Shown: positions 2,708 to 60,608 of the stretch, piece by piece
Layout of the letters: each line of letters opens with the position of its first letter
How positions within the stretch are numbered: the stretch's first letter is position 1
Assembly: GCF_011745625.1 (NCBI RefSeq)
Contig: NW_027191454.1
Location: forward strand, 682,001 to 746,000
Direction: 5' to 3'
DNA: 64,000 nt
Origin: Cladosporium halotolerans
Taxonomy: Eukaryota
Notes under the pieces: model-generated
Told to the model about the DNA's origin: nothing
Databases searched by the model: none
Seen by the model: the letters and a program-made list of their open reading frames with translations, nothing else
Position numbers and translations under genes: made by a program

Positions 2708-4407
2708 CTACAATCCCAAACCCTCCAACAACCCCTCAATCGACTGCACCTTCGGATAATCCGGAAAAGCAGGCTCATAAACCTCCCTACAAACCGCATC
2801 GAACTCCCCCATCCTCCCCTCCACCCTCTCCCCCTCCTCGCCCTCCCTCCCCAACCCAACCACAACCCCATCCTCCCCCCTCACCCTCTCCCACCCCGGC
2901 CCCCGGCCCGGCTCCTTCACCCACTCCACAAACCACCCAAACACCTCGTCCGCCAGCGCCTGCTGCGCCGCCGTAACATTCTCCAGCCCGGAAAAGCACT
3001 CGTTCCCGCCGTGGAAAAACGGCACCTCCGTCCCATGCGTCGGCGCCGTGCCCGGCACTCCAACGACATTGTCGTACGCGCCGAAAAACCTATACGCCCA
3101 CGTCTTCTGCGCCGCCGCACGCATGCGCAGCAGGTACGTGACCGCGCAGGTGAAGCGCGCGTCGCCGTACTGTCTGCCGGCGCGCTGGGAATCGGTCGAG
3201 GCGTTGGTCGCCGGGTATGCGGCCAGCAGAGTCTGGGGCGGGATGTGCGCGACGTCGGCGTCGAAGGAGCGGATCCAGGAGGAGAAGTTGGCGTTTTCGG
3301 CCGCGTAGACGAGGGCGAAGATCGCGCCTTCGCCGGCGGAGGAGCCGGTGAGGAGGGGCACGTGCGAGGCGTAGGAGCCGGCTGCGAAGCGGGTGGCGTA
3401 GTCTGCGTGCCGGGTTTTGTTGTCGATCGCAGGGGTGAAGAGGGTGTTGAGGGTTTTGTTGAAGGTGGATGTTAGGAGGGTGGAGGCGGGGAGGGCGCGG
3501 AGGCAAGCGATGGCGCCGGACCCGTCGAGGGGGCAGGCGTGCTCTGCGGCGACGGCGTTGAGGGCTTCGCTGCGGGGCGCGAAGGCCGGGCCGGAGAGCG
3601 CGTTCGCGCTCATTTGCACGGCGCCGGCGAGGGTTGTGTTCGGGTGGTTCCAGAGGTAGTGGTCGACTTGCACGGAGCCGGAGGAGTGGCCGCCGAAGAC
3701 GATGTGGGCGGGGTTGCCGCCGAAGGCAGCGATGTTGGCCTGGATCCATTCGAGAGCCTTGTCGACGTCGAGGATGCTGAAATTCTGGGACTCGTCGGGG
3801 TTCTCGCGCTCGAGCTCTGCGGAGTGAGGTGAGGCGAAGATGCTCTCGCGAGTGTTGAAGTTGACGTAGACGACTCCGTTGCGGGCGAAGTTGGTGCCTT
3901 GCAGTTGGGTGTTGGCGTTCGAGCCGGTCACCATGGCACCGCCGTACATGTACACGAATACGGGCAGGTTGTCACCTGAGGGCGGTGCCCAGATGTTCAG
4001 ATTCAGACAGTCTTCGGACAGTTCGGTGAACGCAACCTGACCAGGGGCCTGCGGGCATGTCGCTCCGTATGATGTGGCGTTGAAAGGTCGAGAGGACTTG
4101 GGCAAGTCCTGGGGCGGACGCCATCTATTAGCGCTGCGTGAGTATAGATGGAGTGTGTCTACGAAGGAACATGGCATAGGTACCGGTTCTCGCCACCTGT
4201 CGATGCTGCGAAGGGGATGCCGAGATACACCGCGTTGCTGTGAGTGTCCTTGAATCCATGGATAACTCCTTGGTCGATGGTCGCCATAGGGGCGCCATTG
4301 CTGAAGCCATAACTTGCATTGATTGTCGTGTTTGTTGAGAGCGCTATGCTGGAAGTGAGCATTCCCGTGCAGGCGGCTGCCTTGTAGATGCCTCGTGCTG
4401 GTGCCAT
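2708..4407 (-). CDS. Carboxylesterase type B (lipase/cholinesterase-like), possibly secreted
   Basis: Exons 4407-4184 and 4124-2708 (intron 4183-4125). Motifs YLGIPFA...NRWRPP, SEDCLNLNIW, YGGAM oxyanion loop, GHSSG nucleophile elbow, GEG acid, PTHGTEV His; weakly hydrophobic N-terminus. Confidence 0.88.
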
Positions 4408-5279
4408 ACTCGACGTGCGGTAGGCCAGGGGAGTAGTATTGTCAATGGGTATCCAAGAAATGTCAAAACCAGGTCACCGAGAAGATTTATGCCGAAAGAT
4501 GCTGGATGCAGTGTTAACGGCTATCCTGGGAAAAATGCATTGACTGCTTGTCTAGACCGCCTTAATATATTACATAGCCGACCTTTTGCCGGGTTTCATT
4601 GTCAGTGCGAAGTCATGAAGCCATTTGCAGCTTTCGAGATCTTGCGAAACGTTCATCCAAAATCAGAAACACAGCGACAGCGCTGCATGGACAATAAAAT
4701 GCCGTGTTGTGGCGGCGCTCATGCTGTTTGAACGGTCACGGCTCCCAAAACGCTTGGAGAATAGCACCAGAGGACGGGAGTTGAAGCGCTGTCTGCGTTA
4801 CATGGCTCGCTGAGCGACAGAATGTGGTTTGTCCTTATCGTGAGCGCATCATAAGTGTAACGACAAAATCGATAGAACGTCGTCTGGTACACCGCCTTTG
4901 CAGAAGCATGTGGACCATCAGTCAGCATGCCGATCACAGGGAGTGCCACCGCGTCGCTGGGACCGACTTCAGCACCAAAGCTTGCGCGTGCGGTGTTGGT
5001 GGGGGCTTTCTGCCGTCCCTTAGTCCAACGGCCTTTTCTCACCATGATGCTCCCCGTCACACACACTAACCGTGGAGAGACAAAGCACATCGCCAGCACG
5101 GCACATCCTATAGTGGAGACCATGAGTGATGTTCACCCCAAGGGCGAAGCTTGTGCCAGAGCGCAATCGGACCCTAGGGTTCGGGAGATGATCCTACTGC
5201 TGTGGTTCATATTTCTTTAAGGTAGACTTTAGATAATCTTTTGAGTCCAGAGAAAACAGACAGCGATTGTGTGTGGAAA

Positions 5280-56484: not shown

Positions 56485-57767
56485 TCACAATTCTGCAACT
56501 GCAACTGCGACTGCAACCTCATCTGGCCATTTTAGAACATCGAGGGGAACACTCCAGACCAACGCTGGCTCCCTCTACGTCCACTCTTCATGCCTGTCAT
56601 CCTTATCGTTTTCTGGTCTAGCTAAGTTCGAATCGAAGCCGAGGATGTATTTCTTTGAGACATTAAGAATGGCTGGAGACGAAGTGAGGGGAGAAAGCAA
56701 ACATCATTATCAAAGATTTGTTGAAGGCCGTACGAGAAAGAGCTCAGTCCAGGACCAGGGATGGGTTCTGGAGTCCCAACGCTCCTAGACGGGAAAATAC
56801 CGGAATTCGCCATTCTCAGATTGTTCGAGTTCTCTATGGCGAGGGTTTACACATCCTTCGCTACTGCGCTTGACAGATGACCAACGCACCCCACATTGTG
56901 GCGCTGCATGATACGGCTTCGAAGTAGCGACGTGAAACGTACTATAGTGAAAGAACTGTGGACGATCACGGGGACAGCGATAGCTCTCGGTATTCTCGGG
57001 GAGCCCGATCGCTTGTATCAGCACTGCCTAGTCGTGCCGTCCACTTGCCATGCCTGGAAAAGGCCTGCTGTGAGCTGGCAGCGCCTCAGGCTTCTCTGAA
57101 TGGTGTGTAGCCTCGAAAATATGCGCCACTCCCTGCAGCTTATTGATGCCGCCAGCCGGACTCACCGGATTCTTGCACCTCGTGATGCATACTTTGTCTG
57201 GCACCTAGACATCGCTCATCGAAGCATGGGACACACGATTAATCTAAATTGCCCGATACTTGGCACAAAGCAGGCCATGAGAGCGAATAACATCCCGCGA
57301 GTCCATGCGAGGAACCGTCACTTGGAAGAACTCAAGCGTGCAGAAGCGTCTGGCAGGCGACTCGCCATGAATGCTTGTACCCCAGGACCTCAAGGCTGGC
57401 GCCGGCACCCCGCATTCATTTGCGCTGTGTAACCAACGCGTGAGCTCCGACCTACATGATTGTTTGGACTTGGCCGTTTTAAGAAACGCCACACATACTT
57501 GTATGCATGCCTTAGCACTGCTGTCACACACCGCGACCCTCGCATTCTCAGTTGCATGCCCGTCCATGTCAGCTTTCCGCGCTCCCTGCAGCTTGGTGCT
57601 CACGAGTACCGTACCATGGTGGCCCTCGTCTTATTTGCATGAGCTGGCCCCCGCATACATATAATATGGGCGGCCTCGGTGCTTTCTCTGTCATTGCATG
57701 ACTCCTGGGCTCTGACGCATGACAAGTCCATACGGCAGAAAATTAAAGCAAAGTATTCGTTGACAGC

Positions 57768-60146
57768 ATGGCATCGCCAGCGTATGTTGAATTAAAAGAT
57801 TAAATTCCTTCTTTCGGCTGACGATCCGACAGTGAAGATGTCGCTGGCCTCACGAAGCAGCCTGAAATCGAGAAAGACGCTGGGTACGGTGGTAACGATG
57901 TCGTAGGCGGCGCCCAAACCCAGGACTGGCGAAAGCAGAGTGTGGTCGCAATGACCGAGAATGTGACGGGCGAAATCAAGAACCCTTTAGTCGGCATCCC
58001 AAAGGATCAATTGATGGCAGAAGTCGACCTATTTGCCATCAAGTACGGCTTCAATGCCGACACAGAGGTGCCTCTTCTGCGCAAGGGCGCCTTGGTAGCC
58101 CAAAACCCATCTGATTTCGAGAACATTCCCGAGCTGGACGAACCGGATCGTGATGCTCTTCGCAAAGAGGTTACACATCGTTGGAGGCACCCATGGGCTC
58201 TGTACATGACAATCGTTCTCAACTCAATCGCAGCTGCTATCCAAGGCTGGGATCAGACAGGCAGCAACGGTGCCAATCTGTCTTTCCCCGTCGAATTCGG
58301 CATCGGCGACACACCGCCGCACTGTGGTGACGACCCGAATGGGCAACTCTGCCAGAAGAATGCTTGGATCGTCGGGTTTGTCAATGCCTCGCCCTACATT
58401 ACCATCGCGTTTTTCGCCGGTTGGCTCAGCGACCCGATAAACCACTATCTTGGTCGAAGAGGGACTATCTTTATTGCCGCTATATTCTCTCTGCTCGCGC
58501 CCATCGGGTCTGCTTGTACTCAACACTGGGGAGAGTTGGTTGCTTGCCGTGTTATGCTGGGCATTGGCATGGGTCTCAAGGAGGTCACAGTGCCAGTCTT
58601 CTCCGCTGAGAATGCCCCTACAGGTAAGCTTCAACGAACGTAAAGTATCTATCATGCTTCACGCCACTGACAAGCGTCTAGTAAGTGTTATTGATCCCTT
58701 CACTGGAATTACCCAGCCGGGACAGCATTGGTTGCCAAGAACAGCACTTTATCCTCACGTCAATCACACCTCACCATAATCACCACACAAGATATACTCA
58801 TAATATCAAACACTGACCACACATCTCACCAGATTATCCGCGGAGGCCTCGTTATGTCTTGGCAAATGTGGACGGCATTCGGTATCCTACTCGGAACCAG
58901 TGCTAACCTCGCAGTTTTCGAAGTAGGCGACATTGCATGGAGATTGCAGCTTGGTTCTGCCTTCATTCCAGCGATCCCCTTGGTTCTGGGGATCTACTTC
59001 TGCCCTGAGTCAGTACTCACTTTCAAATGCACACTTCACTCTTGGATTTCAGGCCTCAGAGCTGACCGATTGAATAGATCTCCACGATGGTATCTCAAGA
59101 AAAAGCAGCCATACAAGGCTTACAAGTCTCTTCTCCGACTGCGCAACACACCACTCCAGGCCGCAAGAGACGTTTACTACATCCAAGCTCAACTGGATCA
59201 AGAGCAACGCATGGTCGAAGAGGCCGGCCTAGCAAAGAGCGACAACTTCTTCTCACGCTTCATTCAGATATTCACGATTCCGCGAAACCGCAGAGCCACT
59301 CAGGCTTCGGGCATCGTCATGATCGCTCAACAGATGTGCGGAATCAATATCATCGCCTTCTACAGTGCCACCATCTTCAGCAGTGCTGGATTCAACGAGC
59401 GAGACTCACTTCTGCTATCCTGGGGCTTTGGCCTCACGAACTTCGCGTTCGCTTGGCCGGCCGTTTGGACCATCGACAAGTTCGGACGAAGAGGCTTACT
59501 GCTGTTCACTTTCCCCAACATGGCTTGGAGTTTGCTAGTTGCCGGGTTTTGCCTCCTGATCGATGAATCAAGCAGAGCGCGTGTGGCCCTTGTGGCATTG
59601 TTCGTGTTCATCTTTGCAGCCTTCTACAGCCCTGGTGAGGGACCGGTGCCCTTCACATACAGTGCTGAATGCTTTCCACTGAGCCACAGAGAAGTCGGCA
59701 TGGCCTGGGCAGTGGCTACAAACAGTGAGTCTCCTGTTGTCTTGCTTACATTCGTTCAAGCCTAACAGATTATGGCAGACTTCTGGGCCGCCGTCCTCTC
59801 CATCTCTCTCCCCCGCATGCTCGCAGCATTCACGGGCACCGGCGTCTTTGGCTTCTACGCTGGCCTCAATGTCACCGCTTTCTTCTTGATCTTCTTCTTT
59901 ATGCCTGAGACCAAGCAGCGTACGCTTGAAGAGCTGGACTATGTCTTCGGAGTCCCAATGCGCACTCATGCTGCTTTCCAGAGCAGGAAGCAGTTCCCAT
60001 GGTGGTTCCGTCGCTGGATCCTACAACGCAAAGGCGAGCCGGAGCCGCAGCTGTATCACTTCGACAACGACGTCTTCATCGAGAGGACGGAGAAAGTTCA
60101 GGTTGCGCTGAGGGATGACGGGGATGATGGGGAGGTGAAAGTCTAA
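57768..60146 (+). CDS. MFS sugar porter (polyol/myo-inositol transporter-like)
   Basis: Exons 57768-57781, 57833-58622, 58833-59008, 59078-59724, 59779-60146. Motifs [89 protein letters not shown]. Confidence 0.9.
58623..58832 (+). other. [D1,2] spliceosomal twin intron (stwintron)
   Basis: Internal intron 58624-58681 (GTAAGC..ACTGAC..TAG) splits the donor G|TAAGT of an external intron (58623 plus 58682-58832; ACTGAC 58812-58817, CAG 58830-58832). Of the routes checked, only this one restores the frame. Confidence 0.85.
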
Positions 60147-60608
60147 CAAATCAATGTCAAAGGCAGTTAGGATGACCTTTGTCTAAGGCGAGTAAGCGGT
60201 CGCTACAGGAACAGTCTGTGGAGGGAAGCCAGGAGAACGATATCCTTGTTGTTTCAGTCTCATTAGTCCGATAATCAATTGAATGTATTGCTGCTTCAGC
60301 ATCTTGATTGAAGATGCCCTAAGTTAAGCGATAATCTACTGGACTCCGTTTTGGCAGTCTTCCTCCGTTGGGTGATGCTTCTTCGTGTCATGATTTCAAT
60401 CAAGTATTGAGGCTAGATCAATACTTGTTTTCTCGCATCCGAGGTTCAAGAACTAAAAAGCTCAATTAGAAACCCGATGACCCTGCAGCCACGCTTTCCC
60501 GCATCCGATGAGAGTGATGCCATCAAACAAGCAAATCCTCGAAACCCACCATGCAACCATTGCTCTCCGTCAGAGTGTATCGACCGTCAATTCCACGGTG
60601 CACCTGAT

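Follow-up and report, generated by a model that had tools for sequence, protein, structure and literature searches.

The window analysed here is a 64-kb stretch of DNA (64,000 nucleotides) from Cladosporium halotolerans, positions 682,001 to 746,000 of contig NW_027191454.1. On its plus strand, where all window features described below lie, it carries a gene for a sugar/polyol porter of the major facilitator superfamily (MFS; 57768-60146). Open reading frames (ORFs), the sequence itself, matches to Pfam Sugar_tr (PF00083) and RNA contigs together define five exons, namely exon 1 (57768-57781), exon 2 (57833-58622), exon 3 (58833-59008), exon 4 (59078-59724) and exon 5 (59779-60146). The spliced reading contains no internal stop and gives a coding sequence (CDS) of 1995 nt for 664 aa. 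Three ordinary GT..AG introns, intron 1 of 51 nt (57782-57832), intron 3 of 69 nt (59009-59077) and intron 4 of 54 nt (59725-59778), separate the exons, and the donors of these three are GTATGT, GTCAGT and GTGAGT. Between exons 2 and 3 lies a 210-nt block at 58623-58832 that begins with GG and ends with AG, which is the subject of this study. The initial annotation had read this block as a nested spliceosomal twin intron (stwintron) of the [D1,2] type, i.e. an arrangement in which an internal intron sits between the first and second bases of the donor of an external one.

The block interrupts a conserved motif of the encoded protein. Sugar_tr matches exon 2 at 1.3e-12 (47.8 bits) and exons 3-4 at 2.4e-48 (165.6 bits), against a cut-off of 22.3. 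Exon 2 ends in ...GAG AAT GCC CCT ACA (ENAPT) and exon 3 starts with ATT ATC CGC GGA GGC (IIRGG), so the spliced protein reads ENAPTIIRGG and contains the sugar-porter motif AP-x-x-x-RG; the domain matches and the motif place it in the family. A search with the exon 2 protein returned 1423 relatives, and the closest full-length matches among those listed, at 76-78% identity, come from Hortaea, Recurvomyces and other Mycosphaerellales-like Dothideomycetes. When the motif region was compared, 118 of the 120 listed orthologues showed SAE-x-x-P-x-x-[IV]RGGLVMSWQ with identical spacing, and the remaining two (P0040 and P0088) are gene models in which part of the region is left out. Because the orthologues are gapless across the motif, exactly 210 nt must be removed, and the block to be removed is GG..AG. 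The length of 210 nt put forward in the initial annotation is thus borne out by the orthologue spacing, and also by the RNA contigs described below.

No full-length protein of the window's organism is present in the protein collection searched, where the top full-length match is 78% identical. The sole 100% match, P0123, is a 230-aa ORF call found on 14 contigs; it starts at an internal Met, passes ENAPT, enters the intron and ends six residues later (G-R-C-Q-R-T-stop). As a piece of sequence, this read-through establishes solely that the intron starts with GG and retains the stop. The suggestion that the intron is unannotated agrees with these results. Gene callers reject a 5'-GGT, and the transporter would therefore be predicted truncated, frameshifted or without its conserved motif. 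The consequence for annotation is visible here in two orthologue models that already skip the motif region and in an exact match that is no more than an ORF running into the intron.

We checked the splice signals of the block against the sequence, and every coordinate and motif of the initial annotation proved correct, including the lengths of 58 nt for the internal intron, 152 nt for the external intron and 210 nt for the whole. Positions 58623-58624 are GG, directly after the ACA that ends at 58622. The internal intron (58624-58681), whose length is near the 51-69 nt range of the ordinary introns of the gene, has the donor GTAAGC (58624-58629), the branch element ACTGAC (58666-58671, with the branch A at 58670, 11 nt before the 3' end) and the acceptor TAG (58679-58681). 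The remainder of the external intron (58682-58832; 152 nt when G58623 is included) starts with TAAGT (58682-58686) and has a branch element and an acceptor of its own, ACTGAC (58812-58817) and CAG (58830-58832). G58623 would be the last 'exonic' base in a first reaction and the first base of the external intron in a second, in which it joins TAAGT to form GTAAGT, a canonical donor. The two in-frame stops that had been pointed out are present as well, one at 58641-43 if nothing is removed and one at 58777-79 if the internal intron alone is removed.

We then enumerated the possible ways of splicing the block. Taken as one intron of 209 nt, 58624-58832 shifts the frame, and a single intron of 210 nt would be GG-AG, as the initial annotation had argued; neither is among the frame-preserving GT/GC..AG combinations, and on enumeration no single GT/GC..AG pair produces the junction 58622/58833. 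Micro-exon and one-intron alternatives were rejected, since every in-frame GT/GC..AG pair either disrupts the conserved motif with tens of extra residues or deletes it. Full enumeration yielded seven two-step GT/GC..AG routes to 58622/58833. All of them use the internal donor at 58624, because otherwise the remainder cannot begin with GT, and all of them need G58623. One has an implausibly short internal intron of 22 nt, four regenerate GC donors without consensus, and one regenerates GTGTTA. Only the route with 58624-58681 is both of workable length and rewarded with a donor that fits the consensus (GTAAGT). The [A2,3] route is not available, since an A and not a G stands at 58833, as had been noted before.

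The enumeration leaves two nested routes with a different internal acceptor to be weighed, 58624-58685 (acceptor AAG, regenerated donor GTGTTA) and 58624-58674 (GC donor). Both are formally canonical two-step paths to the same mRNA. Their regenerated donors, however, are far from the GTRNGT consensus, while the ordinary introns of the gene use GTATGT, GTCAGT and GTGAGT, and the RNA contig that covers the external intron (see below) begins at 58680, not at 58684 or 58673. We consider it highly improbable that either of these routes is the one used.

To see what becomes of the block in RNA, we compared four sequencing runs over 57700-60200, one of DNA (X19) and three of RNA (X20, X2 and X3); the many further runs with shares of 0.23-0.43 carry no weight in what follows. 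X20 comes from the same sample as X19 and is identical in sequence to the window; X2 and X3 come from two other studies and represent a relative with ~2.3% exonic differences, i.e. ~97.7% identity (48 of 2114 letters differ in X3 contig 13). The contigs drop rare forms and cannot show RNA ends, and their depth figures are no measure of level. All three RNA runs contain the joints 57781/57833, 59008/59078 and 59724/59779 of the ordinary introns, the X20 contigs skipping 57782-57832, 59009-59077 and 59725-59778. At the block, one X20 contig ends at 58617, and the match of another (contig 10) begins exactly at 58833, next to 7 extra letters unlike the intron. X3 contig 13, of 3890 nt, runs through exons 1, 2, 3, 4 and 5 and reaches 58622, from where it jumps to 58833; the same 58622/58833 joint occurs in X2, a separate study. 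The joint was output as 58622/58836 with ATA in between, which we read as a synonymous ATT>ATA change. The results show that the mature junction is 58622/58833 and that the gene is expressed and spliced.

The same contigs bear on another in-frame canonical pair, with donor 58624 and acceptor 58845, from which the main product would arise with IIRG deleted. This pair is in frame and stop-free. Its acceptor, GAG, is a poor one, its product loses the conserved RG motif that is kept in 118 of the 120 orthologues, and the RNA places the acceptor elsewhere, with the X20 contig beginning at 58833 and X2 and X3 joining at 58833. A main product of this kind is extremely unlikely.

The off-by-one position of the donor could in principle also stem from an assembly error, namely an extra G, or from a decaying pseudogene; in the first case the intron of the true gene would be a plain one, in the second the locus would no longer function. 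A one-base slip would give exactly such a picture. X19 yields one 147-kb contig (depth figure 33.7) that is identical to the window over 57700-60200 and has no indel at 58623-58624, where the initial annotation had named an indel as a possible weakness; it may be the window's own source data, yet it is an independent assembly. The stop of P0123, which is found on 14 contigs, coincides with the GG-frame stop of the window, and minus one G the frame would be open to 58779. This identity and this stop argue that the 5' GG is no assembly slip. With a single G the intron would moreover be G/TAAGC.. or 209 nt, still not canonical in frame. Against a pseudogene, which had likewise been listed for checking, stand a spliced CDS without internal stop and RNA contigs of the same organism in which the exons are covered and the three ordinary introns are missing. 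Taken together, there is hardly any chance that the locus is misassembled or dead.

A further question is whether the whole 210 nt forms a non-canonical GG-AG intron that is removed in one step and holds the nested signals only by coincidence. The mature junction alone cannot separate one step from two, and no read of the intermediate junction was obtained. An intron removed by U2-type splicing must begin with GU or, in rare cases, with GC or AU, and a GG donor would face competition from the perfect donor that starts one base further on (58624). An X3 contig of 165 nt is also relevant. It covers 58680-58841, starting at the internal acceptor and retaining the external intron in front of exon 3, and differs from the window at 13 of 162 nt. 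Position 58680 is the first base common to the unspliced RNA (..CTAG/TAAGT) and to the predicted intermediate (..ACAG/TAAGT), and the contig may start there because an assembly graph breaks contigs where two paths converge, as the two-step model predicts; as a trace of a splicing intermediate, this start is a hint only. A nested signal set arises in only ~0.4% of randomised middles, and in three close relatives a GG..AG block is built and subdivided in the same way (both described below). On this evidence we regard one-step removal as very unlikely.

We conclude that 58623-58832 is very probably a [D1,2] stwintron of an expressed sugar-porter gene, removed in two steps, as the initial annotation had proposed. 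The two-step enumeration, the orthologues and the RNA junction support this reading, and a [D1,2] stwintron is the only plausible canonical route to 58622/58833, the junction that the orthologues require and the RNA contigs contain. In the first step, the spliceosome would remove the 58-nt internal intron 58624-58681 and join G58623 to T58682. The new donor GTAAGT, one base upstream of the first cut, would then be used with ACTGAC (58812-17) and CAG (58830-32), so that the 152-nt external intron leaves and ...CCT ACA/ATT ATC... (ENAPT/IIRGG) results. We infer this order of the two reactions; the spliceosome would presumably favour the near acceptor, since in fungi a short intron appears to be recognised as a unit. 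Premature stops are present in the intermediate as well as in unspliced RNA, and regulation via nonsense-mediated decay is a matter of speculation.

Several observations weigh against this conclusion. In the runs compared, no contig crosses the intermediate junction 58623/58682. In X20, from the window's organism, no contig bridges 58617 to 58833, so that the acceptor side alone is fixed; the full mature junction comes from the relative only. The predicted mature mRNA CCTACA/ATTATC is thus confirmed as a junction in the relative (X2 and X3), but for the window's organism only as far as the acceptor at 58833. Mis-spliced products are compatible with the data, since contigs drop rare forms. Finally, the distance from external donor to branch is 125 nt, beyond the limit of 120 in a published search pattern, and the literal pattern misses the site. 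We gave no weight to the uncovered parts (58624-58679 in X3, 58624-58791 in X20 and X2), even though an uncovered internal part fits fast removal of the internal intron, nor to the finding that none of the contigs retains an ordinary intron.

The published pattern, GGTRWGY-N(25,120)-DYTRAY-N(4,24)-HAGTRWGY-N(25,120)-DYTRAY-N(4,24)-HAG, is given in PMC5587772 as a Fuzznuc search heuristic tuned to Aspergillus nidulans, not a definition. All five of its motifs and three of its four distances fit the block, and with the limit raised to 130 its sole match in the window is 58623-58832. We next estimated how often a complete nested set, defined as AG/TRNGT with an upstream branch motif and workable lengths, arises by chance. 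Keeping the 5' seven bases and the last 25 nt fixed and randomising the middle, we obtained such a set in 81 of 20000 mononucleotide shuffles and in 87 of 20000 first-order Markov simulations. Our own nested pattern matched once in both strands of the 64-kb window, with 0.22 matches expected per simulated window. The nested pattern alone is therefore not rare genome-wide, and its exact fit to the removable block is what counts. The predicted fold of the 210 nt (-32.4 kcal/mol, z -0.5 vs shuffles) has no special structure, and in and around the block there are no strong terminal inverted repeats, short imperfect repeats being the only ones seen. A 14-nt pair with 79% complementarity, between the internal acceptor/external donor and the external branch region, was set aside, as it is expected from the complementarity of the donor and branch consensus. 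The exon flanks 58601-58613 and 58833-58845 are 85% complementary over 13 nt, which may be chance.

We next examined whether related loci have an intron at the same position. The comparison set consisted of 80 metagenome-contig loci encoding relatives (331 kb). At CDS nt 804, the position of the block, 69 of the 80 loci have no intron and none has one, while 11 gave no call; 56 of the 69 are clearly genomic, as they have introns elsewhere in the locus. In a K..W anchor test of the 11, L005 and L026 were intron-free across the region, L071 had an intron at nt 828 and L076 one near nt 840, so that none of these four has one at 804. The comparison of orthologous loci suggested in the initial annotation thus finds no related locus with an intron at this site, which makes the intron a recent gain in the window's lineage, common to at least the window and the 97.7% relative. 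The introns of the window gene lie at nt 14, 804, 980 and 1627 and those of L033 at nt 362, 846, 955, 1253, 1514 and 1627; such differences between the window and its closest relatives mean that intron turnover in the group is high.

Between CDS nt 800 and 900, intron positions are unusually varied within ~90 nt across L001-L080 and P0125, P0130 and P0183. Introns lie at nt 804 (the window), ~807, 828, 836/843, 845/846, 852/853, 884 and 891, of which the one at ~807, in P0125, was deduced from ORF read-through only. This variety marks the segment as a probable hot spot where introns are gained and lost. L076:2890-3006, within this conserved part of the gene, has two plain introns, 2890-2943 and 2951-3006, around a micro-exon of 7 nt (2944-2950).

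Three of the related loci contain complex introns with the architecture of the window block. L001:2011-2212 is a GG..AG block of 202 nt at CDS nt 845 with an internal intron at 2012-2070, L027:1635-1831 is one of 197 nt at nt 852/853 with an internal intron at 1636-1686, and L033:4807-5009 is one of 203 nt at nt 1514 with an internal intron at 4808-4864. In all three, the internal intron of 51-59 nt directly follows the first G and its removal would regenerate GTATGT. Together with the window, these blocks of ~200 nt, with external introns of 143-152 nt, occupy four positions (nt 804, 845, 852 and 1514). The [D1,2] and [A2,3] routes are both formally open in the blocks of L001 and L027, and [D1,2] alone in that of L033.

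Plain introns are found at or beside two of these sites. The closest relative, L033, has a plain GT..AG intron of 51 nt (L033:3900-3950) at nt 846, one base from the complex intron of L001. The site of the L027 block is a plain intron at nt 853 in the more distant loci L030, L031, L032, L044, L062, L068, L069, L072 and L075 and a plain intron at nt 852 in L004, and the L027 block gives the impression that an internal intron arose within an older one. The blocks of L027 and L033 are alike (alignment z 16.8 vs shuffles; 85% over 47 nt, E 2e-8), although they lie at different positions and the exons are only ~73-77% identical. Judged by this similarity, they are candidate sister stwintrons outside Xylariales.

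The window block resembles none of the three complex introns, with z values of 0.6, -0.4 and -0.7 in global alignment. A blastn search with the 210 nt and with each part, covering the 64-kb window and the 331 kb of relatives, matched the window only over short stretches attributable to chance, and the 80 loci not at all. That the window twin intron arose in a burst of [D1,2] stwintron gains among related Dothideomycetes is a tentative idea that we rate as rather doubtful. If true, stwintrons would have propagated outside Xylariales, the only group with sister stwintrons in the literature searched, and the complex intron of L001 at nt 845 and the plain intron of L033 at nt 846 would belong to a series in nature that bears on the 'one-nucleotide intron shift' model. 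The only literal match to the published [D1,2] pattern in the 80 loci, L008:5020-5256 on the minus strand, lies outside the transporter gene.

The window element is a further example of an already described, rare intron type, and its mechanism is not new. According to PMC5639578, PMC5587772, PMC9024468 and PMC12403724, [D1,2] stwintrons of Pezizomycotina include those of A. nidulans lipS and DHA1 and that of bioDA, and Hypoxylon sp. CO27-5 has 36 sister and 81 unrelated ones. Several hundred have been published, with sister families from Hypoxylaceae and Xylariaceae, and the splicing intermediate that lacks only the internal intron is called a 'splinter' (PMC12403724). Like these stwintrons, the window block begins with 5'-GGT, has an internal U2 intron between bases 1 and 2 of the external donor, regenerates a GT donor, provides each intron with its own branch element and acceptor, and is missed by gene callers. 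Its position is new and lineage-specific, as reported for sister stwintrons. In contrast to these cases, the host is a Dothideomycete, judging by the Mycosphaerellales-like matches, the host gene is a sugar porter, no similar copy occurs in the window or the 80 loci, the fold is unremarkable, and strong terminal inverted repeats of the kind reported for sister stwintrons of Hypoxylaceae are lacking. Few stwintron papers mention Dothideomycetes, and one of these, to judge by its abstract, deals with old and conserved stwintrons. The main text of PMC12403724 makes no mention of a sugar transporter or MFS host, and that of PMC9024468 none of a sugar or transporter host, while their supplements may list host genes. 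The suggestion that this stwintron is undescribed is consistent with this literature as far as these texts go.

Among single cases, DHA1 of Trichoderma reesei is an alternatively spliced [D1,2]/[A2,3] stwintron for which PMC5587772 presents the one-nucleotide intron shift model. Its donor-side architecture is the same as that of the window block. It uses both routes, as would formally be possible in L001 and L027, whereas in the window [A2,3] is closed by the A at 58833. The one-base offset between L001 and L033 is the kind of discordance treated in that paper. Two further systems invite comparison, and neither matches the window block fully.

Long introns of animals can be removed stepwise by recursive splicing at ratchet points, the first reaction regenerating a 5' splice site. 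The window block would likewise be removed stepwise with a regenerated 5' splice site. At a ratchet point, however, the new donor starts at the junction (AG/GTAAGT), whereas here the G is supplied from upstream of the first cut and the donor spans the junction (G/TAAGT), and the block measures 210 nt as opposed to tens of kilobases. Introner-like elements exist in Dothideomycetes. Like them, the window block, of ~200 nt, is a recent gain specific to a Dothideomycete lineage and occupies a new position; unlike them, it has no second copy in the window and the 80 loci and no unusually stable fold. Introners are covered in PMC9860276 and PMC12403724.

For intron biology, the window offers an expressed, recently gained [D1,2] stwintron in a gene segment that harbours further complex introns, at nearby positions, in close relatives, and it extends the stwintron cases to Dothideomycetes. 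The locus is a compact natural system for the origin, one-base movement and loss of nested introns, and the cluster of complex introns in the relatives is a more interesting lead than the window element. As a minor observation on the same gene, short X20 contigs with very high depth figures (841 and 2156) match conserved stretches of the window in part, at 58854-58886 and 59887-59926, and beyond these differ from it; transcripts of paralogous sugar porters are their probable source.

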